From Rhynchobatus australiae (Eukaryota), in the NCBI GenBank assembly GCA_034780895.1, contig JAUZTB010000065.1:28853724-28917723 (forward strand): a stretch of 64,000 nucleotides of DNA. The letters run 5' to 3'. Made by a program: the position numbers and the translations under genes. Shown here piece after piece: positions 735 to 54,845 of this stretch; the stretch's first letter is position 1, and every line of letters begins with the position of its first letter. The notes under the pieces are model-generated. The model saw only the letters and a list, made by a program, of their open reading frames with translations. It was not told the DNA's origin and did no database searches.

Positions 735-1230
735 TTGCCACTCTTGGCAGGATCTTCCCTCTCAGTCAGAAGATTACCATTCTAAATGCCACTTGAGAAA
801 CGTGATATACATTACTGAGAGAATGCTTCACTAATGGAGATGCTGTTTGTTGTATCCAATGTTAACCTGGGGCTACATGCAAATTCCTGAATTGGTGCAA
901 ATGACCCCACCGTACTATTTCAAAATGAAACCTAGATAATATTTACTCCCTGTACAACATCTGCAAAGTGGGTTATCAGATGAATGTCAGATCACTGCTG
1001 CTATAGTTCTAACAAAAGGTCTGACCTGAAATGTTGACTCTATTTGTCTTCCCAAAGATGTGGCCTGACCTGAGTATTTCTGTTTTCTATTTTTTAGATT
1101 TCCAGCATCTGCAGCTTTTTTGATTTTCACTGCTCATTATTGTCTGTCATCTTTTTTGTCACAAAATTACAAATGCTTGGGAACAACCTGTAAGTGTCAT
1201 GAAAATGATACATATAGCTGCAACTCTTCC
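735..1230 (+). mobile_element. Old Deu-domain SINE (SacSINE1/AmnSINE1-like), interrupted by a Penelope-derived fragment
   Basis: Degenerate Deu-core words (actgagagaatgcttcact…gatgctgt…atgttaacctgggg…gtactatttcaa…aatatttactccc) and a tail resembling gctttgggacgtcctgaggtcgtgaaaggcgctatataaatgcaag. Confidence 0.55.
1000..1126 (+). mobile_element. Penelope-derived terminal fragment with decayed hammerhead motif
   Basis: agttctaacaaaaggtctgacctgaaatgttgact…gatgtggcctgacctgagtatttc…agatttccagcatctgcag. Possible TSD TCACTGCT at 992-999 and 1127-1134. Confidence 0.65.
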
Positions 1231-2334
1231 TATGATCAATTTATTTTCACATTTCTAAAATTATACTATTTGCTTCTGTACTACCACTAGTTTTTGTTCT
1301 TTCTGGAAGGAACCAGTTCATTCTTTTTCCTTGGACCTTATCCATCATGTGTAGCCTGCTCTCCCTCTCCTACCTCTCCTGATCCAATATGATCCTCTTG
1401 TCTGTTTACACCATTTCCAAGGTTTGTGTCTTCTGCATACTTCAAAATTGCCCTCCAGTACCAAAGTCCAGACCAATAATACCAAAAATCCTTGGAACAC
1501 AACTTTGTGCTTCCCTCCAGTCTGAAATGCAATTGTTCATTTCTACTGTTTTTTGTCTTGCAGTCCATTTTGTATCTTGCTGATGCTGTTCTTCTCGCTT
1601 GCTATTATAGAACACACTTCCAAACATAGTTTGGAGGTTTATTTAGTGACTGCAACCTATTTCAATATTTCATAGAAGAACAAAGTCAAAGATATTTGGC
1701 TTTGTTAAACCCATGTTCATTATAATTTTCCTAGGATATAGAAATTGATAGCACCCAGGAAACTACAATGTGCCAGCCTGCTGTGAAATTTTAGCAGTAC
1801 TGCTGATACAAGCTTTCCACATGCAGTACCGGTTAAAGACATATTGTGGGGCTATAGTACAAGAGTTTCACTTGTGGAGCTGTTTCATGGTTATAGTTGA
1901 CCAGTTTTTAAGGCAATAATAAAATGTGCTCATTGGAACAAAAAATCACTTCGGTTAGATTAATAGCTTTTTACTTGGCAATTAAAATATTGAATTTTAC
2001 CCATGTGAACTTGCCTAGTGACCTTGAATGATGATTTTTCAGTAAGTTGCTCTTAAAGTTTGATCACTTGAAGTTAATTCTGATTTCCCCACTGCAGTAA
2101 CTTNNNNNNNNNNCGATCTTGTACTGAATTAAATAAAATCTCATACTCTATCTTTGCTCTCATTTTGGACATGGTGTACATTACTCACAGCTAAATCTAT
2201 CAAAATTAATCAGATTATTTACAAATTTAAAGTGATGCTGCCAGACCTGTACAAGAGACTACAGACATCAGTAAAGAAATCTCCATACTGGACCTGACCT
2301 TGCCAGACAGCCACAAAACAATATCACACAAAAT

Positions 2335-2836
2335 CTCTAATGAGAAAACTTGGAGGAACTCAGTCATTCAATTAGTATCTGTGGAGGGATAAGGATGGTT
2401 GAAGTTTTGGGTTGAGACCCTTGATTCAAGACCCAGCATGTAGAGGGAAGATGGTCAGTATAAAGAAGTGAGAGGGAGGTGTGAGATGGGGAGTGATTGG
2501 TGATGGGTGGAGCCAGGTGAAGTGGGAGATGATGGGCGGGTGGGGAAGTGAGGGGGGGTTTGAGACAGAGGATGGTGGGCAGTAGGTGGAAACATAAGGA
2601 GAAAAAATGAGGGAGTGGAGCCAGATGAGGGGGAAGGTGGAGACGGGCTGGAAGGTGAGGTGGAACCTGATAAGGGAGTGATGATGTGCAGATGGAACCA
2701 GATGGGGAGGGTAACTATTCTAGGTAACAGGGGAAATGGAAAAAATGAACAAAGGAGGAGCGAATCTAGGTGGATCTAGGAGTAGGAAAGGAACACTAAG
2801 AGTTACGTGAAATTGGAAAATTCTATGTATGACCAT
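2335..2836 (-). mobile_element. Penelope-derived repeat (purine-rich 3' region and terminal motif)
   Basis: tggaggaactcagt…tctgtggaggga…ttttgggttgagaccctt followed by a G/A-rich tract; the reverse complement of the copies at 21400 and 33200. Confidence 0.65.
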
Positions 2837-3254
2837 TTAAATTTTTCGGTTTAGGGNNNNNNNNNNNNNNNNNNNNNNNNNNNNNNNNNNNNNNNNNNNN
2901 NNNNNNNNNNNNNNNNNNNNNNNNNNNNNNNNNNNNNNNNNNNNNNNNNNNNNNNNNNNNNNNNNNNNNNNNNNNNNNNNNNNNNNNNNNNNNNNNNNNN
3001 NNNNNNNNNNNNNNNNNNNNNNNNNNNNNNNNNNNNNNNNNNNNNNNNNNNNNNNNNNNNNNNNNNNNNNNNNNNNNNNNNNNNNNNNNNNNNNNNNNNN
3101 NNNNNNNNNNNNNNNNNNNNNNNNNNNNNNNNNNNNNNNNNNNNNNNNNNNNNNNNNNNNNNNNNNNNNNNNNNNNNNNNNNNNNNNNNNNNNNNNNNNN
3201 NNNNNNNNNNNNNNNNNNNNNNNNNNNNNNNNNNNNNNNNNNNNNNNNNNNNNN

Positions 3255-3865
3255 GACACCACCTGTGCTATCCAGTTCCTCCTACACCTAGCCCCCCATC
3301 AGCCTGTTTTATTCCTCTTTTCCACTCCATCTGTCCATCACCCACACACTCCTCCCACTGGGTGTTCTCCCCCTATGGTTACCATTTGTTCACTTTCCTA
3401 TCAGATTCCATCATCTGCATCCCTTTGCCTCCACTATCACCTCCCAGCTTCTTTTGCTGTTTCCACTGTTCCCATTTGTGCATTTTGCATCTTTTCATGT
3501 TCCTTTGTCGATATCATAGCTTGTATTATATCATAGCTTGTATTATATCATAGCTTTTTGTTCCACTTTTCTCTCTCCTTAATTTCCTCCATTAACCTGT
3601 CCACCAGGTGACCACTACAACTTATCCCAATGGCAACCTGAGCCTCTCCCTATAAGAACAATTTTTTTTGTCCTATCTATCCCTTCCCTACCTTCTCTAC
3701 AACCTGACCCTAAATTGTTTTCTCTTTCCTAGTTCTGATGGAGGGTCATTGACCTGAACCATTAATTCTTCCTCTTTCCACAGATCTGACTGACTTGCTG
3801 AGTGTTTCTTGTATTGTCAGTTTTATTTCAGATTTCTGGCATCTACATTTTTTTGATTTTCATGA
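3255..3865 (+). mobile_element. Penelope-derived repeat(s)
   Basis: Pyrimidine-rich body, agttctgatggagggtcattgacctgaacc, then ctgacttgctgagtgttt…ttcagatttctggcatctac. Confidence 0.65.
3511..3556. repeat. 17-bp tandem repeat (atatcatagcttgtatt) x2.7
   Basis: Read directly from the sequence. Confidence 0.9.
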
Positions 3866-5616: not shown

Positions 5617-5715
5617 CAACACATACAAAATGCTGGAGGAACTCGGCTGGTCAGGCAGCGTCGATGGAGAAAAATAAATAGTTGACATTTTGGGTCAAGA
5701 CCCTTCATCAGGACT
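5617..5715 (-). mobile_element. 99-bp Penelope-terminal mini-insertion with 10-bp TSD
   Basis: CCATAGGCTT at 5607-5616 and 5716-5725 flanks the insert. The minus strand starts AGTCCTGATGAAGGGTCTTGACCCAAAATGTCAACT. Confidence 0.8.
5680..5715 (-). ncRNA. Decayed minimal type I hammerhead ribozyme motif (best copy)
   Basis: AGTC-CUGAUGA-AGGGUC/GACCC-AAAA-UGUC-AACU. Reverting CpG transitions gives AGUC CUGAUGA stemII GAAA CGUC GACU. Confidence 0.6.
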
Positions 5716-7001
5716 CCATAGGCTTGTTTACTTTGTGTAAGAAGGCAGACAGAATCTCAGTTCAAAATTTTGTCTGAAAAGATGGTATCTCTGACAGTTC
5801 TGCACATCCTCAATCTAGATTTTTGTTCTCAGGTCTCTGGGTTGGGGATATTAACCCACCACATTTTAACCTGAATGAGAATGGTATCAGATGAACCATG
5901 GCTAGCATAATCTATCTTCAGTATCTCAAAAACATGACAGAAATCTGTAAGTAGCACAGCTGAGGATGAGCTGTTGCAAATATTGGCATTCTGTTATGAT
6001 ATAGCATGTTGGGTCTTTGAGAATTGTCACCTTAACCTACTACAGTTTCTAAATTTTTTGCCTTCCTGTTCTTGATAATCTATACTCTAGTTTCCCTTTC
6101 AATCTTATCAAATGATTTGGAGATCTAAATGAACTAAGATGATAGGCAAATAAAATGTTTGCGCTTTGTTCCTTTTGAACTGTTGAAATACAACAGTCCT
6201 GTGCAGTTTTTGTCCTGAATTTGGGGTGTCTGGAAAAGCATGCTTTTGTTAACTATAGGGGCATGGTCACTGGTCATGAACACAGTAGTGCTGCCTGTGG
6301 AAGTCATTGGATGCAAAATTAATAACACTTAAGTTCTCAGCCTTGCATCAAATCAGATAAGGCTGTAAAGGGGGGGGGTTCTTTCTGAATCAGGGTGAAC
6401 TAGTGTTAGTAATGGGTATTTGTTATGGATGAATATCATGAGGTGATTAAATTTGTTTCTTGATTTGAGAGCAGTTTATAACTGACAGCTTGCATTAANN
6501 NNNNNNNNNNNNNNNNNNNNNNNNNNNNNNNNNNNNNNNNNNNNNNNNNNNNNNNNNNNNNNNNNNNNNNNNNNNNNNNNNNNNNNNNNNNNNNNNNNNN
6601 NNNNNNNNNNNNNNNNNNNNNNNNNNNNNNNNNNNNNNNNNNNNNNNNNNNNNNNNNNNNNNNNNNNNNNNNNNNNNNNNNNNNNNNNNNNNNNNNNNNN
6701 NNNNNNNNNNNNNNNNNNNNNNNNNNNNNNNNNNNNNNNNNNNNNNNNNNNNNNNNNNNNNNNNNNNNNNNNNNNNNNNNNNNNNNNNNNNNNNNNNNNN
6801 NNNNNNNNNNNNNNNNNNNNNNNNNNNNNNNNNNNNNNNNNNNNNNNNNTTTCCTTAGTGCACCAGCCAAGACTGAGATGCAACTAAGTTATTTTTTAAT
6901 GCTGCATTTATTTCAGTGTATTGAATTAGAATTCCTTTTGTAGTCTGAAATATTTTTAATATACCAGCAAATCTTTTTCTCCACCTTTTTTGTCCCCCTA
7001 G

Positions 7002-7199
7002 GCACAGAGCAATGGCCTCCTGGTGTGTCCCTGAAATATGTAGGAGGGGACCAATTTGGGCATGTTAACATGGTGATGGTCCGGTCACTGGAGCCTCAGG
7101 AAGTTACCGATGTCAGTGTTCAGATGCGAAGTCCAACTACGCCAGCAATGTACCAGGGGCAGTGGCGCATGTGTACAGCTACAGGGCTTTACTTTGGAG
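7002..7199 (+). CDS. ILRUN: ILRUN (C6orf106) internal coding exon, NBR1-like/FW domain part; phase 1-1
   Basis: Pyrimidine tract and AG (…tgtcccccTAG, 6999-7001), donor G|gtaatg at 7200, 198 bp. Translates (G)TEQWPPGVSLKYVGGDQFGHVNMVMVRSLEPQEVTDVSVQMRSPTTPAMYQGQWRMCTATGLYFG, nearly identical to recalled human ILRUN GAEAWPPGVCLKYVGGDQFGHVNMVMVRSLEPQEIADVSVQM…MYQGQWRMCTATGLYYG. Upstream exons were not seen in the window. Confidence 0.96.
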
Positions 7200-7605
7200 G
7201 TAATGAGATATAATGAAATGGCTACCTACAAATGATGGTTCACTTTTCTCCCTAAGTGCATCCGGTCCCTAAATTTTGAGGCTTCCGAGAAGTCGGGGGT
7301 TATTGTAAATGGCCAAATGAATCTGAGATTATGAACAATTAATTGTATTATTTTGGTATTTATATTCTGTGAATAGAGGGTGATCTAACATTCCTTTTTT
7401 TTGCCGCTTCTGATTAGAATTTGCTCGTGTATCCTAAATGCTTTGTCTGGTATTGTTTAGAAAATGTTTATGTGAACTGGAATTTTATTTTAAATATAAA
7501 ATGTTCTGAATTCTGTGAAGTTAGACTCGTGTACAAAGAGAGCTTCAGCTGCAAAAATAACAATTGCCAACCTAATCATAATTCCATGTTTTGTGTCACT
7601 CTCAG

Positions 7606-7934
7606 ATGTGATTTGGGTGATTCTGAGTGTTGAAATCGGAGGCCTTTTAGGAGTTACACAGCAGCTTTCTTCATTTGAAACAGAATTTTCTTCACAACCC
7701 TGTCGCAAGATTGAAGGCAATTTTAACCCTTTCGCTTCACCGCAGAAAAACCGGCAATCTGAAGACAACAGTGTGAAGGACCCCGGGGGCCAAAGTACAA
7801 ATGTCATTAGTAAAAATGCATGGGGCCCAACTGAAGACCAAAATGAACAAGATCAAAATGGACTGTCGCAGAACTCTGTAAATATCTCCCCTAACAGTCA
7901 CTCTAGCAACTTATCAGTGGTGACTTACAGTCAG
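7606..7934 (+). CDS. ILRUN: ILRUN penultimate coding exon; phase 1-0
   Basis: Acceptor ctcag| at 7605, donor CAG|gtaaat at 7935, 329 bp, in frame with the previous exon (G|AT = Asp). Translates DVIWVILSVEIGGLLGVTQQLSSFETEFSSQPCRKIEGNFNPFASPQKNRQ…NLSVVTYSQ, matching recalled ILRUN. Confidence 0.96.
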
Positions 7935-9945
7935 GTAAATACAGAATGATTGATTTATTTTGTTTGCCCCATTTCTATTTTTATATGCATGTGTGAGTGA
8001 CTTAAGAAGTTGAGAAATGGTGTGAAGAGCGAACCTTTCCATTTTGTATCATGAAGAACCACTGTAGATCCCTGTCTTAAGTCATTCTGTAGGCAGGGTA
8101 TAACGGAAGCCTGGCTATCTTTTAACTCATGGTGAAAGTAAACTTAACTGCAGAAGCAATTGCTGGATTAGTGGGGTTGCATTCAAATTTGATAGCTTTT
8201 CTCATCTTGTATTGTAAACTCATTGCAACTGGATTTAAACTATTCAGAGTGTTCTCTCCACTTCTGAGAGTTAAAAATATCATCTCTTTTCTTGGACTGT
8301 AAGTATGCATTGTATCAGTAAGCTTTCTCAATCCTTCCCTCCACCACTCCATGCTCCCCCACATATTCCCCTGAACAACATGTTTAAAGTTTTTGTGACC
8401 TGAAATTTGAAAGGATCCTTTGGGTACAGCTTTCTTGATAGTCAGAGGTGAACTATTCATTGCTACAGAGAGTGTTTGAATGCTTACCAGAGGCTGAAGA
8501 ACACATGTATGTTAATAGTGTTCTTTGAATAAAATAAAACAAAATCTGAACTCTGTTTTATAACTTAAGCTTCAATATTTTAATTCTTAATTGTCTTTTT
8601 CTGGTTTTGTATCTTGTCTATTTTCTTTCTTGTGCTACCCACTTCCATTGTGCTGAATCCTCTTTCTCTGATTCACTATCAAGCAATCCACCCATGGTCA
8701 AGCCTTTTCCTTTATTTGAGGTAGATCAGAATTAGCGTAAGAGAATTAACTTAGATTGCCTGTGATCTATCAGCTGCAATTCCAATTGATGACTGCACAA
8801 AAATGTTCTGGAACTCTTTTTTTTCAAGTGGAAAAGTGTGGCGAACCTATAAAACCCTGAAATGCTGCCTTCACAAATTATAAATGCTGATATTTAGCTT
8901 ATTCACCATTGAACATAGTAAATATTGGGAAGATTCATGTGGAATACTTGAGAGGTAGTTTTCCCTCTTGTAATCCTTCATGCCTTGAAGCAAAAAAAAC
9001 ATTTCAAACAATTAGAGGCTCTCAAATATCTGTTCAACACCTTTGGTTTCAGCTGTGTCAATATTAGTTTGAGGAGATGGTACCAGTAGCTTTTTCTCTT
9101 GATGTAAATGAAGAAAACAAAAATTCTTGGAATTCCTGTTCCTAAGCATGATCTAGTCACTGTGTTGCAAGGAGGTGAACAAGAGCTGGGGTCATTCTAT
9201 GAATTGTCTTTCAGATTAATAGGGTTGCAAGTGAATAAAACTGCTGATTGAGGTACAAGAGGACATCTGATGGCCATGAGCCATATCCCATTGTAAATTA
9301 TTGCTAGTTAAAATGATTGTGTTAAGAGGAGGGAGGGTGAGATCAAGAAGCAAGCTGTTGACTAAAGTTTTTTTTAAATAATTGGAATAAGAAAGCAAAA
9401 CATTTTTTGTCTTTTACATCTTTCTCCCAGAATTATTGAATTTGAAGCTTGAATCTGTAATTGAGGATATTTGGCAGAAATGAGACTTGAGCATCAGCTG
9501 ACATGTACCTGCACAAGTAAAACAAAGATTATTTGGGTTAGTCTTACATCGGTTCTTCATTCAGATATATTGTAACAACACTGTTAAAGTTTGTTAGTTA
9601 AATTAGCTAATAGTATTAGCAGGAGCAAAATGACCCATCTGTAACATTTCTGTGAAAGTTAGGAAACGCTGAAGGCAAAACTGAAATCAGCAATTTCCAA
9701 GAGGCCATTTGGCCCATCTTGTTATTTCCTAGTTTGAGGGTATTCTTAATAAAGCTGTTGTTTGAATTGCCAGCAAAAATCTTTGTGTCACATTGTAATT
9801 ACAATTTCCATCAGATGCTCCAAATCAAGTCCACTCAACAGCTGTNNNNNNNNNNNNNNNNNNNNNNNNNNNNNNNNNNNNNNNNNNNNNNNNNNNNNNN
9901 NNNNNNNNNNNNNNNNNNNNNNNNNNNNNNNNNNNNNNNNNNNNN

Positions 9946-10247
9946 AATTCATGCAAAAAATCAGAAATTTCTAAAATGGATAAACAAAAACAATAAATAT
10001 ATAATATACTAGTTTGTATCATATTATTATTTTAAAAATAATCAATCTGTGTCTCCTCTCCCAGGATGAAGACGATCCTGCTACTCCTCATCCTCACCTC
10101 ATGTCTCTGTGGTCAGTTTGGACCTTCAGGTTCAGTCCAGAACATTCAGTTCTTGTTGTAGATGCAGTTTCAAGCCTCCCATGTTCCAGTTGTCAGTGTG
10201 TCTGCTCCTCTCTGTCTCCTCAGCAGCAACATCTGTAGTGAAAGTGA
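9946..10247 (+). other. Foreign-looking gene fragment: signal-peptide exon, short intron and start of next exon, resembling teleost V-set Ig-domain genes
   Basis: Acceptor ctctcccag|G, ATG at 10066, MKTILLLLILTSCLC, G|gtcag donor at 10112, acceptor tctcctcag| at 10223, then AATSVVKV before the frame runs to a stop. Starts immediately after a 100-N gap. Confidence 0.6.
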
Positions 10248-13200
10248 TACCTTTGGGTTTTTGATAAATTTATTTTCTATTTAACAACATGAAAAACCTG
10301 CCTCTATGATAGCAGGACTAAATCCTGTTAGAGGCTGGGTTTAACATACTTGGAGGTTGTAAGAATGCATAATTGAACATGGTCCTGTTGATAATAAAAA
10401 GATAGTCTTATTAAGGCAAGATATTCTCCATGAATGACTTGTTACATCAGTGTGTGACAAAAGGGGTTTTAGAAATGATTGCAGGCAGAGAAGAAGAAAT
10501 GAAGAATCAGCTTAATATTTTAAGTTTCAACACTGAAATTGGTAGTAACCTTTTTAAAGCTCTTTGTCTTAAATTTTTTTGCCTGCATTCTTATTCTCTA
10601 TTCAGGAATATTTGAGTGCTGGGCCACTTCCATAAATTTAAGAACCAAACTTTAAATGGCTTAATTATTGAACAATTAATGAAGAGGCCAGTGAAATACC
10701 AAACAAGTTGTACATGAAGAATTGCATTAATTCACCAAAAACAATTGTGCATTTTAATTCAAAGAAATTAAGCACAATTTTGATTTGAGTTTAGAATTCC
10801 AGTGTGCCATTGCAAGTGGTGTTATAGGTAGGTGATATGGTCTATTGATTTTTTTTGTTGTGCCTAAGTGTAACAATGGGAAAAGTTGTGCCTATCATCC
10901 AGATTTACTAGTTTCTCAGTCATAGTTTGGAAAGATTAAGTATATAGGAAGGGAAGGTGGAATGTATTTAAATACTTGGGATTTTGGGATTGAGTGGTGA
11001 TTGAATCAAAGATGAGTAGGCCATTCAAAGTTTTGATAAAGTTTTTGAGAATAAAGTTCCTCGTACCTTCTCTACATGGTTCCATGAAGAACTGACCTGA
11101 GGCCAAATATCCTCTGAGAGGGCCATCACGACATCAGGAGTGAAGACATTTAGTGGTGCCTGATTAAAATGATGATTTTAAAAGCTCCTAATTGCTGTGC
11201 CCATGGGAATTTTAGCTACTTCTCAGATCTAAATCTATTGTTCCATTTTCTGTTTACTTCTCCCCCCGCCCCTTTTTTTCCCTAGGCTTGTCTCGTCTGT
11301 CTTCCAGCCCTCTTGAACTGACTCATACCACATTTCATTTTTCCCTAATCGGACATTATCTTTATACCCACGATTCGCACCAAACTATTAATGGTCTGTA
11401 AGTGTTTTTTTTCCCCAGGCTATAGGCCACCTGGATAAGTCTTCAACTCCGTCCCTCTATTCTCCAAGCAGCCTATTGAGAGATTTATCACTGTTTCCCT
11501 AAGAGCAGTGATTTCAATTTGCACATCTTTCTGGGATGTAATTTTGCTAATCTCCTTGAATCATTTCATCCACCAGTAACTCTATGAACCATACCATGCT
11601 GTGACCATCCATCCCTTTTATTCATCATTCTCCAAAACTTTTGTTGCTTGCCAAACAATCTTTTTGCAGATGATTATAATTGATGATAATTTGACTCATG
11701 GGTACGTGCTCTTTTCCTATCCACAGAGTCTGCCTATTACCACCAAATCTACCCAAACTGCCATAGTGATGATATAGTATGTCATTTACTTTTGCCTTGG
11801 TCTCTTCATTCAAACACTTCCCACCCATTTACTCTCCTGCCAACCTGAGTTTCTCATTATGGGATCCTGACTCTCAGCTTCATTGCTGAGTACCTCCTTA
11901 TCCTTGATTCCAACCTCCATCTCAACTTTGACTCTCTTCTTTGGAGTTCACTAATAATTTTCCTCTTAATATTTCTCTACATATAGAGCTTTTTTTTTAT
12001 TTTTGGTCATGGGTTTATTGCTAACCATTCAACTGCCCTTCCTGGCTCCAACAGTAGTTGAGGATGGGAATTGTATCTTCTCTGAGCATTATTGTCCATG
12101 TTTTAAAAAAATAAATCAACCCCATGACCACCTTTTTTTTTGAAAACTGGTGCTTTGTTGTCAAGCTTGCATTCCTCTCTGAAGTCCTTGAGTATGTTAT
12201 TTTGGGCAAACTTGGGGTCAGATCTTGAATTGTAGGTTTCTACCCATACCACAACACTGAAACATTTAACTGATTGTGAAACACTTTTTTTCCTTGTATA
12301 ATTTGACCACCCTCTAGCCTTGGTGATTCACCACATCTTTTTCCTGTTGTGCAGTGAAATGACTTCTGTCACCTGCTTCCAACATATCTTTTCAAATGTA
12401 GCCAGAAGAGATCATGTAGTGTTTTATGCAAGCCCTTTTGATTTCTGATCTACCTGCGACCTCTCAACAGCATCATCTGAAGATATGATGTCACGTTCCA
12501 CAAACTGTATCTATTAAAAACGGATTCTATTTCACCACTACATTTCTTGACTTTTCCTCCACCTTTGTGTTGACTGAAAGTCCTGGATGAGAGAGAATTT
12601 CCCACCATGAAATAAAAACTCTGCTTGACTCACCCAACTGAGCCAAAAGTGAAAAATGAGAATCATTGATGCTTGTTTTAAAAACTGCTACTTTCATAAA
12701 GCTTTTGTCTCCTAAATATTTATTCCTATGCTTTTGATACTGTTTCTGTTGATTCTTCTCTGAAATCCAGTTGGGCAGATAAAAGGTAATAGTGCTTTAC
12801 AAATGTAAATTGTTCAATTTAAGGAGTGTACCACATGCAGATATTGTTGAACAGGATTTTTTAAAATTTCTATGCTCTTTGCTGTGGGGAAAACTTTGTA
12901 GCCTAAATTTGTAATTGAGATTTTTTTTGAACTAAGCTTGGGTATCAGTAATTAGTGATAATCAAAGACCTCAAAGTTGACAACAGCAGGAGAATAGAGC
13001 AGTTGACTTTGGTGTTCAATATAGTGCAGGAATTCTCTTCTGTGTTTTAAGGTAAAGTACATTATTGGTTAAACTCAATCAATATTGTTCCCCACATCTG
13101 CAAGTGTGAGTTCATGATGATGCAGTGAAGGAATTAAAACTTCTGGGATCTGAATGAATGGGCAGCTATGTTTTTTCTCGTATCAAAGGATTCAGAAATC

Positions 13201-21300: not shown

Positions 21301-21399
21301 GTCTCCTATGTCCTAATAAGTAACAATGCTATTTATAGCAACATAGCACTGAAACAAAAAAAATTAAAACCAGTCTCTGCAGAACTTAATGAACATAGA

Positions 21400-21840
21400 T
21401 TTCTCTAACTTCTAGTAACCACTCCCTTCTGACTTTTCTCCCCCCTCCTTTTTTCCTTATCCCACCGGCCCCATCACCCTTTCACTTTCCCCTCTCCACC
21501 CTCTCAATCTACCCATCACCCATACATTCCACTCTTCAGTTCCCCTCCTCACTTTCGTCCACTCTCCTATTGGATTCCATCTTCTTCAGCCTTTTTGTAA
21601 GTTTTGCCTATCACCTCACAGCTTGCATCATTTCCACTCCCCCTCCCTCAGCTGTCTATCATCCCCCCTCACCTGGATCCACCAGCTCTTGCTCCATCCC
21701 CTTGCCCAACCTGTTTATACTGGCCATCTCCCCTCTTTCCATTCCTGATGAAGGGCCTCGACCCAAAATGTTGACTGTCCATTTCCCTCCATGGATGCTG
21801 CCTGACCCACTGAGTTCCTCCAACTTGTGTGTTTCTGCAA
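21400..21840 (+). mobile_element. Penelope-derived repeat with hammerhead motif at 21740-21777
   Basis: C/T-rich body, cattcctgatgaagggcctcgacccaaaatgttgactg, then gatgctgcctgacccactgagttcctcc. Confidence 0.7.
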
Positions 21841-23189
21841 AACTTCAAATCCATTCTGTACAACTGTGCAGGATTAGTATGTGCTAATTTTTGTTGACAA
21901 TTTTAATGTTTTACCACTTGTGACTAATTTGAGGAGCTACATTTAAGCTTAGTTCATCTCACTAGTTCCTCCAGTAGTGAATTTCTTTTTCAATACAAAG
22001 GGAACCCTGACAGCCATGATAGAATTAACTGCTTGGGTAAGAAATGGAATATTTACATGAAGTGGTTAGCAGTCTTTTCCAAATTATTTGAATTTTCATC
22101 CCTTTTATAGTTCTTGTATCTTATATGAAACAGAAATTGCCCTTCTATCATGGACAGGCAACCACTTTCCTCCCTTCGGCCCATATTGGATATCATTTTT
22201 AGACTAAATATTTCAGTAAAACAGGTGGATTTGCCTTTTTGTATTTGACTGCATGCTCGTAATATTTTGTTATGTGCTCAATTGTTATCCTGGTTAACAA
22301 TTTTTTTTCTTGATGTGGGCTGAAGATTCAGAGCAATCTGGTTTTGGGGTAGGGTGCTTGTTGCTGGGACTGGAATAGCTGGATTATTGACATTATGTCC
22401 ATTTAACTTCATCTTGCAGTGTGGACTTGAGGTTTTAAAAAAGTCCTAATTGTACTTGCACAGAACTTCAATTATCCCAATATTTCTATTACTTTTTGGT
22501 CTTGGCATGATTTAACTTTTTGTGGACTCATCATGTTTCTCCTGACAGCAGTTCCTTCAGCATGACATAAAATACCTTCGCAATTCAAGCTTGATTCAGT
22601 TGAATGTTCCTTGCATTGCATTTGTTCTTGTTTTGTTTTCCTCTCAAGGAGAAGACCAATATGTAGAAACATCTGGTTATTAGACAATCTTAATTTTCTA
22701 TTGGGAAGGGTTGGACAGTTTTGAAAAGTGCCCAGAAAATGGAACAGAAGAAATCTCTGGATTCTGCTGGATAATAGACGTTCTCCTGCAATTTCAATTT
22801 TAAGGAATCCTTTTATGAAGGTCCATTGTACAAACTATGGTAAGTTACTGAGAGCAAACTTTTATAATGCTGCTTTTTATGGCTGTAGTAGCTGGATTTG
22901 AATGTTATCTTTTTATTTTATGTTGATGTATCTCAAATTTGGATTTAGAGCTTTGTTACCCTATTCAAATGCATTAAGTATTTTCTCATTTTTAACCCCT
23001 CTCTCTGTGTTGCAGGGGTGTGGGATAGGCTAACACTTCCTACACATACTTTAATTCATGAGTCAATAATATTTCAATACATGTTTGGATTTGTGCTGCC
23101 AACCTTGTTTGTTCTCCCAGCTACCTCTTTCTTTCATTGTATGTGAAAATTTAATAATGCAATCCACTAAATTTGTTTTTTGGTAAAAC

Positions 23190-23305
23190 AAAAAAAACAC
23201 TACAGATGTTGGAAATCTGAAATATAAACAGAAAATACTGGAGACGCTCAAGACCAGGTAGGATCTGTGGAGAGAGAAAAACAGTTAACATTTCAGATCG
23301 ATGGT
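23190..23305 (-). mobile_element. Penelope-derived terminal fragment (similar fragment at about 30740-30840)
   Basis: cagatgttggaaatctgaaat…gctcaagaccaggtaggatctgtggagag…acagttaacatttcagatcg. Confidence 0.6.
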
Positions 23306-29296: not shown

Positions 29297-32229
29297 CAAT
29301 TCATTCCTATGAACAACAGAATTAATTTCTTCTCTCTCTCCGCTTTTAGTAATTCTTTCTTATCAGTCTTGTGTGTTTTTTGATGCCATTCAATATGATA
29401 TTGTGGAGGTGTGGTTACCCTATTGGGAGATTTTATGGATATAATTGATTTAAGGACATATGTAAAAACTAAACCTGTTCATTACCCAGGCTGTAGAATT
29501 AAATGTTATGGTTTTGTCCACTTTTTATTTATTTATTTTTTTGTGACCTTGTATCAATTCACTGTGAACTTGCATGAAGGTGAGGGAGTTAAGAAACACC
29601 ATTTAAACGTAATGCATTTGCAATAAAAACAACCTGTATACATTTGGCGCTATTAACACAGTAATAAAACATTTTGTTGCCAAGTTAGAAGACAATTGAA
29701 CAGTACTTCAAATTAATGACATGTTTTTATCTAAATTTAGATGTAGAACAACATGACCTACATCTTGCATTTTCATAGATTGCTACAATTTACATTTTCA
29801 TTGAGTTTTATTTGTTAAGTAAATATCCCCCCCCCCCCCCCAAATTTTCTCCTTCATATGCACATTGTACTTGGATGCACAGCTTCTTAACTCCTATACT
29901 TTAGAAATCTGGTTTTGAATTAACAGTGTATGTAACTTAATTGAAATATTCAATGAAGAACCATTGTATTTAAATATGAGATTTAAAAAAGAGCTAAAAC
30001 AAAAGTTTGGCTAAAAAGTAGGTAAACCCTACCTGGCAGTAGCTATGAAATTTATTAATATATAACTTATTAACAATAAAACAATTGATGGGTTTTGTTG
30101 CTTTCTGATCTAACAGTGAAGTCTTGTAAGATTCTTCACAAAATTCAAATTGGCAGTTCTCCCATTTGAACACGAGGAAAACAGTTGCTATTCTAAGTAT
30201 ACTGAATAAATTTGATCTATCAGTGTGCAACTGTAGAGCTTTCCAAGAATGCAGAAGCTTGCTTGGATGTTATGTAAAATGTATGTAATAGTTGTCTCAT
30301 TGAAAGTTTCTTCCTCAATTTTCCTTATTTTCTGTGGTAAACTTTCAATTCCATATCATGTGATTTTAGCATAAATCAACCTCAAAAGAATAACATTGTG
30401 AGGACCAAAATTTGCAGGTAATGAAATGCACCAAAAGAGCAGCAGCTCCAGTCTAAGCATCTTAGTGATATGAGCACCAGCCATCATCTTCTATGATTGC
30501 CATAACACCATGATTCCTGGTGCAATTATATTTCCAATAACCTACCCTGCCTGTTACAGATGTATCTCAAAATATTTTCCGTCTTTTTCTCTTGCACCCT
30601 GCTGTCAAATATGAGGAGCCAAATGCTTTCACAGTGGTAAGTGTTTATGGGACTGGCAACAGTTACTTTTTAATCACTCTTTATGCAGTTGCAATAGACA
30701 TAGGCAAGACAGATTCTAACTAGATGCAGAATTATAAAGCAAAATACCACAGATGCTTAAAAATATGAAATAAAGATCTGCTGAGCATCTCCAGCATTTC
30801 AGGTAGGATCTGTGGAGAAACCTTTAGGGTGGGTGACCTTTGAATAACATCACTTTGCTCTTCCTTAAACTCATTGGTATTCACCTGCACTTTCATGTGT
30901 GGTTGCAAGTTCTATGTTACAGCCACACTTTGAGTGAAGAAGTTTCCCTTGAGTTTCTTATTGGATTTATTGGTGACTATCTTGTATTTCAGACTTCTGT
31001 TGAATGCTTTACAAATGTCATCATGTATGCTGTCAAACCCCTTCAACATTTTAAAGACCTCTGTGAAGTCACTTCTTTTAGAAGAAAGAGCGCTGGCTTC
31101 CCTGATTTTTTTTAATTAACCTCTTTTGGTTGTTTCCTTGTAAGTTTTGTTTTAGACCATTGCTATTACCTCTGTCCTTTTCAAAATATGAAGGACAGAA
31201 CCAAGCAAGATCTCCAAGCCCAGTCTAATCAAGACTCTTTCACGTGAAAGGCTCGTAATGGGTGCTGTGCTTTACAAGACTTTATCATCTTCTCAGATGT
31301 GCTCGACAGTTTTCATGAGTTATGGAACTATTGTGAAATCAGCATTAAAGTTTACATCATCATTCTCTGCAACCAAACCACTCTAAATTTTGTTCTAAGT
31401 TACTACATCTGATGTGTATTTACTGGGTGTTTGTGTACATTTTGGGAGTTTTGGGCACCACATAAACCAACAGAAAAAAAGCTGGCAGAAATTGTGCTAT
31501 TTTATTCATTGTTTTAGAGGTAAAAGAAAACTCCATTGAGACAGGTAAGCATGGCACAGCTCACTAATTTATAAATGTCAAGCTAACAGTGTATGATACA
31601 ATGCTAAACTTGCACTGCTTGTAGTTAAGCAAATTTTAGTGGTCCATGGGTGGTTATGGATGTTTATTTTTCATTTGGTGGAGTTAAGCGAATCACATTG
31701 AAGGAGTTTGGGATCTAAAATGTCATGACTTCTTAAGAACATAACCTCAAATATTTACTCTGCCTTTCTGTTTCCAACTACAAAGCATTACATACAATTT
31801 TTTTGTGTACTTGCCATTTAAGTTATGGGTACAATGGAATAGTTAACTGGGTACAAGCTTTATTCAAAAAGTTATAATTTATTTAAGTGTTTAGCAGTTT
31901 CTCAATTTGACAGTTTCTTGAAACCAAACTCTTCCCAAGTTCCATACAAAGATTCTTCACATCTAATTGATTTCTGTTAATGCCAGATCATTCACAATTA
32001 AACCTTACTGACTTACTGTGCTTAGATATTTTCCAGTTGCATTTTGTCTTGAGAGCATATTTTATTAAACTTGATATTTTTGGTGTAGGCAGTAGAGAAT
32101 CTGATCAGTGATTATAAATATTAAATGGAAGAATGAGCAAAAAATCAGGTCCATAAACTCGGATGTTTTTGTGTTTTGGTTAGAATTCATTCTTGTGTTG
32201 GATTTCTGGGGTAAAGGATTTGTCTATGA

Positions 32230-33199: not shown

Positions 33200-33620
33200 C
33201 AAAAAACACTATTTTCCCCCTCCACCCACTCCATATGCCCATCACCCACACGCTCTTTCCACTAATTCTCCTCACACTGTTCCCATCTGCCCACACCTCC
33301 CTTATTATATTCCATGCTCCTCATTCCACCATCTGCAACCTTTTGCCTCCACCTATCACCTCCCTGCCTCTTGCTATTTCCACTCTTCCCTCCCTCATCT
33401 GTCTATCACTCCTCCTCATCAGTATCCACCAATCGCTAGCTAACTCTTGCTCCACACCTTTTCACCTTTTTATACTGGCTCTCTCCCCTTTATCTTTCAG
33501 TTCAGATGAAGTGCGTCGACCTGAAACATTGACCGTCCATTTCCCTTCACCAATGCTACCTGACCTGAGTTCCTACAGAATCTTGTTCGTTGCTCCAGAT
33601 TTCAGTACCTTGTGTCTATT
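33200..33620 (+). mobile_element. Penelope-derived repeat with decayed hammerhead motif (33498-33535)
   Basis: Same body and terminal motif as 21400-21840. Confidence 0.7.
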
Positions 33621-43315: not shown

Positions 43316-44892
43316 CCTCTGTGTAATTTGGAGGGGCCTCTTAAATATGTTCACCCACTTCCTTCAGGAGTCATGAATATATTGCATGAGTAGGTCATGA
43401 TATTTTGTCTGTTAATTTCTCCAATATATTTATTTATTACAATATTACCATTTTAACCAGAGAAAATTCTTCTCTCAGCACTGAAGCAACACACTTGTTA
43501 CATTTAATCTTGCGCTCTATTAACGTACTGCTCTCCACTTTCAGGTGGCAGCACACTTCTCTTACTAAAATATTGTGGAGTATTTAAACTTAGGAGTTCA
43601 ATGGCATAACTTTTTTCAGAATAATGCAATTGAAAATTGATTTTTCCTGAAACATGATAATGACTATTTCCAGGATGTTTCTCAGAAAGTTAACTGGGCG
43701 TTTCCCCTGAATGAGCCATTTCTGGCACTGGACATCAATCTCCACGTAATATCCTTTTTTCAGCGTTGCTGGTGTAAGTCTGTACTGCTTGTTGCTGACT
43801 ACATGCAAACCAAACAGATTTCCATTACATTGCAGCTGCACAATGTGAGGGATGACACAATCTCTCTTAAAAAATACAGTGCAACATTCTGAAGGTTGCC
43901 TGGTTATTCTAAAGGTAATCACCAATTTTTTTACTAACCTTGATAACTCCCCACAATGGGTGCATTTGTGGTGCTCCCATTGGTTTTGCTGGAAGACTTG
44001 GAACTGAACTACTAGCATCTCCTACTTTGTCAACATCTGCTGCTTAAAGTCCAATCTAGTAAACAGGTGAGCAGAGCCGTTGCCTGAAGGTCTTCAGCAA
44101 AAAGAGGAGGAAGGCGAAGAGAAAGACCGATGTGGATCCTCATTAATAGTACCCACATTATGCACCGTGAAAGAACTGAATGGCAGACAGAGTGGTTAGC
44201 TAGACCGTGGCCCAATTCACCATAGCGGCACGAGGCTTTGAATGGCATTGATGCAGAGACCAAGATCACCATGCTGCCAAAGTGTCAACAGGGGCTGGTA
44301 AAGAACTGTGTTTCACCTCAAGGGTAGGGGTTCTCCTAACTCCTCAGTGCCTCCTGGGAGAAATGAGAGAGTAATTCCCTCATATTCTTGGATACCTTGC
44401 GCATTGTATTTACAGGCTGGACAATGCGCCAATTTTTACTATGAATGGCCACGAGCCTCCTGAATAGTCCTCTCTTAGGGCCCTCACCAGTGGGGGAGTG
44501 AGAGCTGTTCCTGAGTGACCAGAACATTGCGGGCCAAGGCAGTACATATCAATTCTAAGCCTAGGGTGTAGAGGTCTCGCCTTCAAGAATCCTATGAGGT
44601 CATGACCCTTTTTCCCGTACTATTCCAAGTTTCCTGAATGTTGCTTCTATAGGTCAGCCTCCCCACTGCTTCCTGCCAGCCCTGACGGCCCTTGCCCTAA
44701 TTGGCATCCTGGCTCCTCCTGCACAGAGAACTCCACCCACCTGTCCTACTGCTGTTTTTCAGCTGATTGCAAAATATCGCCCATTGCTGCGATGCAATTA
44801 CATGTAAGTAACCCAATTTATTCTCCGTATATTGAATATTGCAATGCTTGAATATTATTATTTGTATTCCTTTAGTTCAAATTAGCACTTTG

Positions 44893-45123
44893 TTGTCCAT
44901 GGGGATGGTACCGGAGAATTGGAGGGTGGCGAATGTTGTCCCCTTGTTCAAAAAAGGTAGTAGGGATAGTCCAGGGAATTACAGACCAACGGGTCTCATG
45001 TCTGTGGTGGGCAAGCTGTTAGAAAGGATTCCGAGGGATAGGATCCATGAGCATTTAGAGAATCATGGACTGATTAGGGACAGCCAGCATGGCTTTGTGA
45101 AGGGAAGATCTTGCCTCACAAGC
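44893..45123 (+). mobile_element. Relatively young CR1 RT fragment, truncated by a gap
   Basis: Open frame VPENWRVANVVPLFKKGSRDSPGNYRPTGLMSVVGKLLERIPRDRIHEHLENHGLIRDSQHGFVKGRSCLT. Confidence 0.92.
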
Positions 45124-45579
45124 NNNNNNNNNNNNNNNNNNNNNNNNNNNNNNNNNNNNNNNNNNNNNNNNNNNNNNNNNNNNNNNNNNNNNNNNNNNNN
45201 NNNNNNNNNNNNNNNNNNNNNNNNNNNNNNNNNNNNNNNNNNNNNNNNNNNNNNNNNNNNNNNNNNNNNNNNNNNNNNNNNNNNNNNNNNNNNNNNNNNN
45301 NNNNNNNNNNNNNNNNNNNNNNNNNNNNNNNNNNNNNNNNNNNNNNNNNNNNNNNNNNNNNNNNNNNNNNNNNNNNNNNNNNNNNNNNNNNNNNNNNNNN
45401 NNNNNNNNNNNNNNNNNNNNNNNNNNNNNNNNNNNNNNNNNNNNNNNNNNNNNNNNNNNNNNNNNNNNNNNNNNNNNNNNNNNNNNNNNNNNNNNNNNNN
45501 NNNNNNNNNNNNNNNNNNNNNNNNNNNNNNNNNNNNNNNNNNNNNNNNNNNNNNNNNNNNNNNNNNNNNNNNNNNNNNT

Positions 45580-45705
45580 AGATTGTGAGGTCAAGAGTCC
45601 ATCTCATCGTACAAGGGAACCGTTCAATAGTCTTATCACCGTGGGATAGAAGCTGCCCTTGAGCCTGGTGGTGTGTGCCCTCAGGCTCCTGTATCTTTTG
45701 CCTGG
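45580..45705 (-). mobile_element. Rex1/Babar-type 3' fragment
   Basis: Nearly identical to 55096-55215 (gattgtgaggtcaagagtccatctcat…gagcctggtgg). Confidence 0.7.
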
Positions 45706-45924: not shown

Positions 45925-46200
45925 AATCCCAGCTGTTCACATCATTCCCCCCATTCCCCCACCTACCTATCTTCCCCCTCTCACCTGGATTCACCTATCA
46001 CCTGCCAGCTCATGCTCCTCCCCCTCCCCCCACCCTTTTATTCGGGCTTCTGTCCCCTTTCTCTCCAGTCCTGATGGAAGGTCTTGGCCTGAAATATCCA
46101 CTGTTCATTTCCCTCCATAGCTTCTGCCTGACCCATTGAGTTCCTCCAGTGCTTTGTGTGTTGCTCCAGATTTCCAGCATCTACAGTCTCTTGTGTCTCC
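45925..46200 (+). mobile_element. Penelope-derived repeat with hammerhead motif (46066-46103)
   Basis: cagtcctgatggaaggtcttggcctgaaatatccactg followed by the family terminal sequence. Confidence 0.7.
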
Positions 46201-46877
46201 ATTACTTCACATTTTCCTTTTAAGAGTTAATGCTTAATACAAACATACTGGTTATTCTTTCTTCATACGTTCATGTTCAAAAATACCAAAATCTAATGAG
46301 TGTCCTCAACAGACCATTTTAGTTTGAACTTTGGAGCGTGGTGTACCTGTAGATTTGTCTCCTCAGCCCATAATTAACTTTCATTTTTGAAGTACTCAGC
46401 AGGTCAAAAACATTACAAAGATCTATATCAAATTCTAAGAATGAAAAATGTAGCTACAANNNNNNNNNNNNNNNNNNNNNNAACAGCCAATAGATTCTGC
46501 ACACAGCAAAACAAAATCTAACGATAAAATACTTGAACATTATCTAATCTTCATTCAATGTATTTTTAATGGACAATAAACGTTGCTGTTTACTCAGGCC
46601 CATTTCCTCAATTATACCAGCAGCTGCAACTTTAACACTGACGTCAAGTGGAAATGCATTTACCAATATGCACACATATTGCAACACAACAGCAAACAGT
46701 CCTGTTCATTCATTACGATTCTCCAATTCAATAATACCTATTAATCATATGGCAGACTGACATGGGTAGATATGGAGCAGACCCATATCTGTAATCGTTC
46801 CTTGGTTATGATTCTGGCAATGTACTTGTTATTAGTAAACATTATTTCTACTGCATTTTCCCTTACTTGTCAATGGA

Positions 46878-50240: not shown

Positions 50241-50354
50241 CCTGTTGTTCAGATGGTCCAGAGCAAACTTGACAGAGTGCCACATAAGGAAATATTAAGA
50301 AAGAAAACTTGAGGGGAGTCTTTGGATCTTGGAACTGTGGGAAGGAGGGAGGTA

Positions 50355-50870
50355 AAGGAAAGATATCATTAAGCTGGAAAGAATGCAATGAAGATTTACG
50401 AGAATATTGTCAGGACTCAAGGGCCTGAGTTATAGGGAGAGGTTGAACAAGCTAGGACTTTATTCATTGGAGTGTGGGAGACTGAGGGGTGACCTCATAG
50501 AGGTGTATATAATCATGAGAGGCAAAGATAGGGTGAATGCACACAGTCTTTTTCCCAAGGAAAAGGGAATCAAAAACTGGAGGGAATAGGTTTAAGGTGA
50601 GAAGGGAAAGATTTAAAAGGGACCTGAGGGGCAACTTCTTCATGCAGAGGGTGGTGCGTTTATGGAATGAGCTGCCAGTGGAGGTGGTTGAGGCAGGTGC
50701 AGTAACAACATTTAAAAGACACTTGGACAGGTACATGAACAGGGAAGGTTTAGAAGGATTTAGGTCAATGTGGGCAAATGGCACTGGCTGAGATGGGCAT
50801 CATGGTCAGCATAGACGAGTTGGGCCGAAGGGCCTGTTTCCATGCTGTATTACTCTTATGGCTCTATGAC
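50355..50870 (+). mobile_element. CR1 3' end, well preserved, 5'-truncated
   Basis: LSYRERLNKLGLYSLECGRLRGDLIEVY…FFMQRVVRLWNELP…FKRHLDRYMN, then tail tactcttatggctctatgac. Confidence 0.93.
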
Positions 50871-52299: not shown

Positions 52300-52445
52300 T
52301 TACAGATAATTTACCTCCCAATCTGCATTCCTTGGGATGTGGGAGGAAACCAGAGCACCCAGGAGAATGTGCAATCTCCATACAGGCCGCACTGGATATC
52401 AAGATTGAACCCGCTTACTGGAGTTGTGAGGCAGCATTTCTCTCT
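52300..52445 (-). mobile_element. V-SINE fragment
   Basis: ttgggatgtgggaggaaaccagagcacccagga is the reverse V-domain; attgaaccc is a reverse B-box-like word. Confidence 0.65.
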
Positions 52446-52564
52446 GTCCACAGTTTTGCCAGTGATCCATGAATACAGATGCTTGTGTGTATTAGTTGTC
52501 AAATACTACTGACTCTCCTCTTCCACATCCAAATGAGGATATGTATATGGTTGATAAATGAAAG

Positions 52565-52770
52565 TCAAACAAAAAACTGCAGCTGCTGGAAATCTGAAAT
52601 AGAAAATTGCTGGGAAACTCAGCAGGTCAGGCAATATCTACAACAATAGAACAATTTAATACTTGAGGTCAAAGACCCTTCTTTAGGACTGAGGAAGAGA
52701 GAAACAAGTTAGTCTAGGTTGCAGAAAAGTTTGGGGAGGGTAATAGGTGGAGAATTTCTGATAGAGTGAA
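52565..52770 (-). mobile_element. Penelope-derived terminal repeat
   Basis: ctgctggaaatctgaaat…actcagcaggtcaggca…aggtcaaagacccttctttaggactga. Confidence 0.65.
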
Positions 52771-53959
52771 ATAATGTGGACGTTAAGGAACAGTTAAGCT
52801 CTTTTGTCAGTGTGACATGCTGCCAGTATAGTAAAGTCTGTGTAATGTTGTTCAATCTGGCTTGCTGGGCATGTCCCCTCTATGAAGAAATTATTCCATG
52901 GGAGTTGCTTTGTTTTACTTCCTTGGCTTTAGACTTAAATGCTGAGAAACTTGAGTTGATATTCCCATGATCACAAACATCGACAACAATTAGTGCCATT
53001 CTCACCCACATAGTTTGGATTCTGCTTTGCAACTCTAAACTCTCTGGCTGCTCTATTGACTGCAAAGTGTAGTTGTATTTGTACCTTGCATTGGACAAGA
53101 TTCTTTAGCTTTCCAATATGCCATCTCCTAAAAGTCACAGNNNNNNNNNNNNNNNNNNNNNNNNNNNNNNNNNNNNNNNNNNNNNNNNNNNNNNNNNNNN
53201 NNNNNNNNNNNNNNNNNNNNNNNNNNNNNNNNNNNNNNNNGTCACAGGTTGCATGAATTAAGGTTAAAAATAATAATCCCACAAGAGTAATTAGCAGTAA
53301 AAAAAATTATAGAATAGGATATCTTGAGCACTTTAATATCTTTTGTTTTGACCATCTAAAATTGAAGCTTAACCCTTCTTGAATCATATTAGATATGTTT
53401 CACACATGAAAAGTATACCTATTCTCTGTAGATGGTGCTTTCTGAACTTGCAATAATTACAAAACCTCAGAATTGCTTTTGAATAACTTTAACATTGGTG
53501 ATTAAATTTCATTTCATTGAAGGTTCGTACTGAAGTGTTGAGATTCGACAACCAAATTAACATTATGCATTTTGGTTTCACCTGACCCCAGTGTTTACCA
53601 AAGGAGAGTTCAGCAGAGGATTTTTCCATTTACACTTTTCCAAATAATGTATCAAAATTATCCACTGTATTGTATCACAGTGGAATTTGGCAAAGTTGTG
53701 TGGGAAATGAAAGGATGATTGTTATCGCCTGATAATTATACAGACACACATGCACAAGCGTGAACTGACTTAAAGGTACAGGCAATATAGATGCAAGCAC
53801 AAATATGTGGATTCACAGATATATAGTTAATGCAAGTATACACAGAAACACAGCCATGTTCAACTGCACAGACACTTTTATAGCATCATGGATGAATAAA
53901 GAGATAAGGATAAAACTGAAATGAAATAAAAAGGCAGAAACTAAGTGAGGGGATGATGA

Positions 53960-54152
53960 ATCACCCAGACAGCAGTGAATCTTTGAAATTTTTCATCCAA
54001 GATGCCTGTGGAAGCTCAGCCATTCAGGATAGCGACTGATAGGTTTTTAGATACCAGGGAATCAGGAACTATGTAGTTAATGCAGGAAAGAGCCTCTAAA
54101 GTTAAAAATCAACCATGATCTTATTGAATGCTGGAGCAAACATGAGAGGCTG
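53960..54152 (+). mobile_element. Old CR1 3' tail
   Basis: gtgaatctttgaaatt…ctgtggaagctcag…aaccatgatcttattgaatgctggagca. Confidence 0.65.
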
Positions 54153-54159
54153 AGTGCCA

Positions 54160-54845
54160 AACAAAGAACTTGCAGATGCAGGAAATCTGAAATAAAAATG
54201 GAAAATGCTGGATACAATCAGCAGGTCAGGCAGCATCTGTAGAGAAAGAAACAGTTAATGTTTCAGGTGCAGGGCCCCTCGTTAGTACTGGGAAATAGAG
54301 GAACAAATTAGTATAGGTAGCAGAGTAGGTTGATAAGGGGGATGGGTGAAACAAAGGAAATTACTCTGCTAGGATGACTTAATGTGGCAGTCAAGGTAGA
54401 GTTAAAATCAGATTAAGCTTCTTTGTCTGTGTAATGCGTTGTTCATGTGGTAAGGCTGTGGGACTTGCCCAGCAGGTCAGATAATATATAAAAAAAGAAA
54501 AAAAAAGGATAAAGCTGGACCAAGAGGATGGCAGACAGAAATGGCCAGTTCTGATACAAAGAATTTGATATTGAGTCCTGCAGGTTGAAATTGTACTCAG
54601 ATAGAAATAAGGTGTTGCTCCCCAAGCCTGTGTTAGTCCTTTTTGAAACAGTGCAGGAGGCTACGGACAAAAAGGCCAGAGTGGGAGTCGGATGATGAAC
54701 TAAAATGGCAGGCAGCTGGAAGCTCAGGTTTGCTCCTGCAAACTGAGCATTGGGGCTCTGCAGAGCACTCACTAGGTCATCATTTGGTTCATCAGTGTAG
54801 AGGAGGCCACATTGTGAATGCCCAATATAGTACACTAGATTTGGA
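54160..54845 (-). mobile_element. Penelope-like element 3' fragment: GIY-YIG endonuclease relic plus terminal repeat with hammerhead motif
   Basis: Minus strand NLVYYIGHSQCGLLYTDEP… resembles the PLE motif NLVYCIRCSRCGLLYIGET, and is followed by gagcttccagctgcctgccatttt (ELPxACHF). Terminal motif at 54252-54290. Confidence 0.8.

Follow-up and report, generated by a model that had tools for sequence, protein, structure and literature searches.

Minimal type I hammerhead ribozymes occur in the pseudo-long terminal repeats (pLTRs) of metazoan Penelope-like elements (PLEs; Cervera and De la Pena, 2014; PMC4209133), and vertebrates are reported to hold only two clades of these retroelements, Neptune and Poseidon. 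The role of the hammerhead and the nature of the RNA that PLEs copy are treated as open questions (PMC8557442; PMC11167929). In PAc, a Poseidon element of Anolis, the ribozyme needs protein, ribozyme mutants still insert in vitro, no RNA-seq ends fall at the cut site, and reverse transcription was shown in vitro to start internally (Frangieh et al., 2024; PMC11167929). What is said of these sources, and of those cited below, refers to the portions of them that were examined. Here we report on a family of dispersed repeats in a 64,000-nt stretch of the genome of Rhynchobatus australiae (contig JAUZTB010000065.1, positions 28,853,724 to 28,917,723; hereafter the window). The repeats are very probably 5'-truncated, neutrally decaying 3' ends (pLTRs) of a PLE, likely of the Neptune clade, and carry a known minimal type I hammerhead that was likely unneeded for their spread. 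Motif, carrier and truncated single copies all belong to published kinds, and the family is ordinary as a ribozyme finding; its value lies in its scale and in what the ends of its copies record.

The hammerhead motif and its carrier

An earlier note on the window, made by eye, had listed nine copies of a 37-nt motif, and all nine were found at the coordinates and on the strands given there. Alignable similarity among them extends over ~200 nt or more, far past the motif itself, and a profile built from the nine (whose own scores are circular for this reason) yielded four further partial copies in the window at E <= 2e-5, with profile matches at 23190-23301 (-), 30736-30828 (-), 57645-57699 (-) and 61848-61954 (+). 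The by-eye consensus corresponds to subfamilies A and B of the whole genome, and the nine copies were drawn from at least two subfamilies, B and A/A2. The observation that CUGAUGA and GAAA are never intact together in a window copy also held for 9/9: each has a core substitution, and C15.2 or G16.2 is lost in every one of them. An Rfam scan, which is uninformative for minimal motifs, found no hammerhead family in the window at E <= 5.

Positions are numbered here with C3 of CUGAUGA as 0, which places the predicted cut between +27 and +28. Intact copies consist of stem I, CUGANGA, one extra A, a 4-bp stem II, GAAA, CG, UC and the return strand of stem I; across the family stem II is 4-5 bp long, the palindromic ACGU (15.1-16.1) has no loop III or at most a tiny one, and H17 is present. 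The order CUGANGA ... GAAA ... UH matches the type I descriptor of PMC4209133, and the topology proposed in the earlier note was thereby upheld. Its description of the ribozyme as a fossil is apt for the window only (0/9 intact). Elsewhere in the genome intact copies are common, with 316 exact matches for subfamily A, 70 for subfamily B and 1817 for a looser pattern, against none for the controls.

In the computed fold of an isolated A motif, stems I and II pair with a probability of 0.9-1.0 and the core is taken up in an inactive paired extension, which is what a monomer without helix III should show. Helix II was paired in 96.6%, and slid controls reached at most 46% for the whole structure, in a test that is partly circular. 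Helix I is just 3-4 bp long in subfamilies B, C and D, and the closing pair of helix II in B is G-U or A-U. The minimal motif is predicted to cleave weakly; small PLE hammerheads are said to cleave as dimers, as reportedly described by Lunse, Weinberg and Breaker in 2017.

The Penelope origin, which had only been inferred before, was substantiated by coding sequence for a reverse transcriptase (RT), a linker and a GIY-YIG endonuclease (EN) upstream of the motif. At one locus (L019) an intact hammerhead is preceded on the same strand by a CX4CxxC linker and a GIY-YIG motif; the linker was also seen in L075, L077 and L110, and of 53961 candidates in the genome 152 were scored matches to the L019 coding piece. 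Longer loci add an RT with the DKG motif. Of these, L100 matches residues 110-818 of an 820-residue RT-EN protein (P0003) in pieces, followed by the motif, and L093 matches residues 106-809 of the same protein, both loci being broken by frameshifts and stops. A homologue search returned eight proteins, with PF26215 in 8/8, PF00078 in six and PF01541 in one, and an atlas match was to GIY-YIG and PF26215; a PDB sequence search gave no match. The motif lies ~250-500 nt behind the end of the EN, on the same strand (L019, L100, L099, L095, L101 and others), and remnants of the EN lie ahead of copies of subfamilies A, B, C and D. The 3' ends of the element fall into two groups, at +80..+104 and +125..+139, ~35 nt apart, which define the PLE tail. 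Because the linker layout is that of Neptune and Nematis, and because vertebrates are reported to hold just Neptune and Poseidon, the carrier is likely, from its sequence, a Neptune-clade EN+ PLE. At one subfamily C locus (L312:1050-1503) the end of the endonuclease is fused directly to the tract before the motif, with an internal deletion of the 3' untranslated region (UTR). Among the loci fetched there was no readable full unit of pLTR, open reading frame (ORF) and pLTR; two intact motifs in direct orientation (G000:C42:42405487 and 42407721), separated by 2234 nt, have a spacing like that of such a unit.

We searched 118 segments, each of 10 kb and taken from large contigs at fixed round coordinates, amounting to 1.18 Mb with 0.2 Mb of N and 0.98 Mb readable. 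The search gave 203 matches against 0 in the same segments reversed, and an exact 25-mer gave 548 matches genome-wide against 0 for the reversed pattern, so that the repeat is present far beyond chance. The density of 207 per readable Mb extrapolates to 3.8-4.6 x 10^5 copies in the 2.23-Gb genome, and the density of the window (13 copies in 59 kb) is typical. The 106 of the 203 matches that span the motif divide into at least four subfamilies (A 25, B 41, C 11 and D 29). The core, counted as 11 core letters plus H17 with no requirement on the stems, is kept in 22/101 gap-free sampled copies. Mismatches to the subfamily majority amount to 123/1052 (11.7%) in the core and 271/2348 (11.5%) in the flank (P 0.91); because core and flank decay equally, the inserted copies, their core included, are under no visible selection. 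At G12, A is found in 31/106 copies and another letter in 3, the pattern expected of CpG decay, and C15.2 and G16.2 decay likewise by CpG-type changes.

Other core changes are inherited, namely A9C in 27/29 sampled D copies and U4A in 11/25 A copies. Exact copies in the same sequence context number 184 for the canonical core, 118 for U4A and 88 for A9C genome-wide. U4 and A9 are conserved positions of the hammerhead core, and a change there is expected to harm catalysis. That subfamilies with U4A or A9C amplified well suggests that cleavage is likely dispensable for spread; alternatively, in subfamily D the C could be a bulge and the A that follows it could act as A9. Under either reading of D, the amplification of these variants fits the in vitro insertion by PAc ribozyme mutants (PMC11167929). 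The idea in the earlier note that a self-cleaving RNA had spread through the genome needs correction: the RNA did not spread alone but as part of a protein-coding retroelement, and amplification extended to lineages with a substituted core. Subfamily C, which has A at position 7, U17 and a 3-bp stem I, accounts for ~55 of the 100 near-perfect copies that head the matches listed versus 11/106 of those sampled, and is likely the youngest burst. Two intact motifs of this subfamily lie on the same strand 76 nt apart (L294/L295; G000:C1:2828230 and 2828306), a mini-tandem that could be a candidate double hammerhead; other close same-strand motif pairs are 153, 371 and 406 nt apart.

Where the copies begin

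The 5' ends of the copies were placed in two samples. The first was chosen by downstream sequence and comprised 38 of the best 40 matches to 62 nt behind the motif, from which 3 with N at the junction and 7 beyond -100 were dropped; 14/28 of these copies begin at -9..+1 and 3 at +23..+33, the window around the cut site, with 2.3 expected in each. In the fixed-position sample, which under-counts short copies (182 matches measured, 128 after removal of those with N or weak scores, 104 in range), 41/104 begin at -9..+1 and 5 at +23..+33, with 8.5 expected. This peak at the front edge of the motif is seen in A, A2, B (17/44) and C (5/11); in D it comprises 2/5 copies and is not significant. Beyond the hotspot, the 5' ends grade continuously into UTR, EN and RT. 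The cut site as the origin of the 5' ends was rejected, its window holding 3 and 5 ends in the two samples versus 2.3 and 8.5 expected. An alignment artefact was likewise rejected, because simulated uniform truncation put 12-15 of 172-186 ends in the hotspot without a peak, and because the 25 nt upstream of the hotspot copies are less than 72% pyrimidine in 14/14 and 41/41 of them.

The hotspot copies have further features at their junctions. An inverted arm is present in 14/35, and target-site duplications of at least 7 nt flank 7/21 plain stubs (3.6% in control pairs), with 3 of the duplications abutting the junction. Position -5 is occupied by G in 10/27 of the copies that lack the tract and have AGT at -4..-2, against 1/111 of the tract-bearing copies; an untemplated G is a mark of copying a cap. 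The repeat is also present in RNA reads, for which three raw runs of one study on a related or the same species were used, in both orientations and with 5851-12881 matching reads per run. Loose read ends at -5, the same junction as that of the genomic stubs, amount to 355 and 367 reads in two of the three runs.

We give about an even chance to the explanation that the front-edge pile-up arises when RT reaches a capped RNA start at stem I and runs off. By this mechanism the element protein would nick DNA and prime reverse transcription on RNA that has not been cleaved, ~70 or 105 nt behind the predicted cut site. Where that RNA is a read-through or tandem transcript, the RT would proceed into the UTR and ORF and stop at random; where it begins at the A of stem I, within an initiator-like YCAGTY, copying would end by run-off at the cap. 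The run-off products would be stubs of 100-135 nt, often with an extra G, their length following from internal initiation of reverse transcription, as in PAc, together with run-off at the capped start. In an active element the ribozyme would have the putative role of trimming a leader of ~32 nt, as a dimer or with the help of the element's protein. A fuller version, which we hold tentatively and at a little under an even chance, is that the 5' strand of stem I doubles as a transcription initiator, that the ~10^5 stubs are strong-stop complementary DNAs (cDNAs) recording both a capped start and internal RT starts from uncleaved RNA, and that the U4A and A9C subfamilies show either that catalysis is dispensable or that a register shift with C before A has made a new active core.

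The same edge invites an explanation by splicing, in which the pyrimidine tract and CAG before stem I would be the acceptor of a PLE 5' intron and the stubs would derive from RNAs joined by splicing to various donors upstream. Every subfamily retains the tract and CAG (of 133 copies with the tract, 125 have C at -5, 122 have A at -4 and 120 have G at -3), the D. virilis intron terminates at the 5' end of helix I (PMC4209133; intron in PMC2377424), and some stubs have 7-26 extra letters between the duplication and the element. We nevertheless regard splicing as unlikely. The 21 plain stubs have no common upstream sequence, save one locus fetched twice, and the duplications described above, with their excess over control pairs and the position of 3 of them at the junction, also speak against splicing. 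The -5 letter after AG is G in 10, C in 13, A in 3 and T in 1 of 27 copies, unlike exon ends, which favour C or A at that position, and no GT..AG joint was found among the joints shown from the RNA reads (36 further joints were not shown). A shared first exon was sought upstream of the stubs and none was found. It is also possible, if doubtful, that RT or the new cDNA stalls after copying stem I, and that the CAGTC/GACTG complement folds back or switches template, with no RNA start at that place. Such a pause would suit the inverted arms, two of which (L339 and L351) join via the complement of stem I; the pile-up is also seen in B and C, though stem I is only 3-4 bp outside A, and the G at -5 is left unexplained.

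Two further explanations concern the nature of the family as a whole. Most copies lack coding sequence, a few same-strand pairs stand 76-406 nt apart, and tandem retrozymes have been reported in one chondrichthyan (bioRxiv 2026.07.22.740005), all of which would suit an independent non-autonomous family, either a retrozyme or similar to a short interspersed element, that spreads by ribozyme cleavage and circular RNA. This is improbable, given that same-strand neighbour pairs within 500 nt number just 8 among 142 motif-spanning matches, that the window copies are single, that the ends do not fall at the cut site, and that the 5' ends grade into UTR, EN and RT, with EN remnants before copies of all four subfamilies. 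A tandem retrozyme as the main form was ruled out by the same count of pairs. Highly improbable is the retention of dispersed copies as functional self-cleaving elements in host transcripts: the repeat is found in RNA reads in both orientations and about a fifth of the sampled copies keep the core, but the core decays as fast as the flank, none of the nine window copies is intact, and minimal motifs gave no monomer cleavage in vitro (PMC4209133).

Several results weigh against the PLE reading that we prefer or against the run-off that we attach to it. In the three RNA runs there was no pile-up of molecule ends anywhere, in reads from thousands of copies that blur start and cut sites. The extra-G comparison was made post hoc on 27 copies, inverted arms explain 2 of the 10 cases, and a good 3' splice site coincides with the front edge. 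The double-hammerhead dimer, at -19.9 kcal/mol versus -33.7 for a mispaired duplex, lies above the energy minimum; when 100 nt of downstream context were included, stem I was maintained (P > 0.5) in 1/7 copies. Covariation in the stems, which the earlier note had put forward as a check, was no stronger than in many shuffled alignments (in 500 shuffles the observed values were attained 99, 233 and 108 times); the alignment had 29 rows, 20 pattern-selected and 9 from the window, and what stands is two compensated pairs between subfamilies, one event each at 2.1-1.1 and 10.1-11.1, which set B apart from the others. In Pfam searches with the broken PLE proteins the best match was to GIY-YIG at E 0.079, the other 9/10 pieces having no notable match; nothing reached the cut-off in 10/10 locus pieces or for the window ORF at 54446-54871. 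Among the loci fetched there was no intact ORF, full-length element or element 5' end. Under the PLE reading, hundreds of thousands of natural products point to an uncleaved template, a fixed RNA start at stem I and the amplification of lineages with an altered core.

Copies and other features of the window

The remnants of the element in the window are collected in Table 1. The copy at 1005..1130 seems to begin at the stem I edge, although one reference lengthens it by ~40 nt upstream, and the copy at 5617..5716 starts at that edge and is preceded by G. The best-preserved motif is that at 21740-21777, with G12A and C15.2U, both CpG-type changes, and the most decayed core is that at 52655-52691. 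The U4A of the copy with its motif at 33498 is common to its whole lineage and was likely inherited. Compared with the intact copy at L019, the copy at 45954..46203 has 78% identity over 225 nt, and the endonuclease remnant at 54560..54807 has 61% DNA identity over 249 nt and 44% over 62 codons (tblastn E 3e-4).

Table 1. Remnants of the Penelope-like element in the window, with motif positions and core changes.
Coordinates	Strand	Feature	Subfamily	Motif (core changes)	Remarks
1005..1130	+	PLE end	B	1005-1039 (G5A, G8A)	has tail
2310..2678	-	PLE end	A2-like	2397-2430 (C3U, G8C, G12A)	~230 nt of upstream UTR
3682..3861	+	PLE end	B	3731-3767 (A9G, A15.1C)	has tail
5617..5716	-	short PLE end	A	5680-5715 (G12A, C15.2U)	tail-less
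21372..21836	+	PLE end	A2/A	21740-21777	long pyrimidine-rich UTR
23182..23301	-	extra partial copy	B		begins within stem II
30736..30828	-	extra old partial copy			only downstream block
33276..33604	+	PLE end	A2	33498-33535 (U4A)	
45954..46203	+	PLE end	A	46066-46103 (A9G)	has tail
52557..52729	-	PLE end	B	52655-52691 (G5A, G12C, A15.1G)	
54163..54381	-	PLE end	B	54252-54290 (G5A)	has tail
54560..54807	-	broken GIY-YIG endonuclease C-terminus remnant of PLE			upstream of the copy with motif at 54252
57641..57699	-	extra short partial copy			only downstream block
61842..61954	+	extra partial copy	B		begins in stem II

The window holds other repeats besides. RT fragments of another retroelement, which we take to be CR1/L2-like, were found at 44836-45123 on the plus strand (Pfam RVT_1, E 6.9e-6, below the cut-off) and at 63032-63559 on the minus strand (RVT_1, E 6.9e-10, above the cut-off). 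Another dispersed family, with a 43-nt repeat, has 6 copies between 41209 and 62427; a 124-nt repeat pair with 91% identity lies at 45579-45702 and 55094-55217; and an inverted 54-nt pair of another short repeat family, 93% complementary and 217 nt apart, lies at 58049-58102 and 58320-58373. A stop-free frame of 149 codons at 7500-7946 on the plus strand, for which there was no Pfam or atlas match, is possibly an exon, or due to chance.

Comparison with known systems

The motif is closest to the minimal hammerheads of metazoan PLE pLTRs (Cervera and De la Pena, 2014; PMC4209133), with which it shares the type I order, a helix I of 4-5 bp, an extra nucleotide placed after position 9 and before 10.1, G10.1-C11.1, a palindromic 15.2-16.2 and the absence of loop III. 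As in that account, most motifs are single and come from truncated PLEs, there are several consensus families in one genome, and close opposite-strand pairs occur. Helix II differs in length, being 7-8 bp in Schistosoma and 4-5 bp here. The same work gives ~4,000 motifs for coelacanth and ~9,000 for Xenopus; the figure here is ~4 x 10^5 repeat copies, which is extrapolated and obtained under different counting rules, and ~1/5 of the motif-spanning copies have an intact core. No shark or skate term occurs in the portions of that paper and its supplement examined. A review (PMC6765202) agrees in predicting dimer-dependent cleavage for small PLE motifs with a short stem III. Our literature search, which had Repbase, Dfam and subscription papers outside its scope, found no paper on this repeat family, on the front-edge pile-up or on A9C/U4A.

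As regards the carrier, the Neptune EN+ PLEs (Craig et al., 2021; PMC8557442) have in common with it an RT with DKG, a CX2-5CxxC linker, a C-terminal GIY-YIG with CCHH, a 3' hammerhead, an inverted 5'-truncated arm and an optional tail of 30-40 bp. The choice of Neptune over Nematis rests here on the linker and on the clades reported in vertebrates; no intact ORF was found. The non-LTR retrozymes (Li, Clavereau and Pollet, 2026; bioRxiv 10.64898/2026.07.22.740005) are likewise PLE-derived, have a type I hammerhead and include one chondrichthyan; they are defined as tandem arrays, unlike the dispersed single or inverted stubs described here. PAc of Anolis (Frangieh et al., 2024; PMC11167929) belongs to another, linker-less clade, and the front-edge pile-up and core-variant subfamilies are not described in the portions of that paper examined. 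It resembles the present element in having two 3' ends that define a tail and a hammerhead just upstream of the RT starts, and in giving no sign of cleaved RNA as the template.

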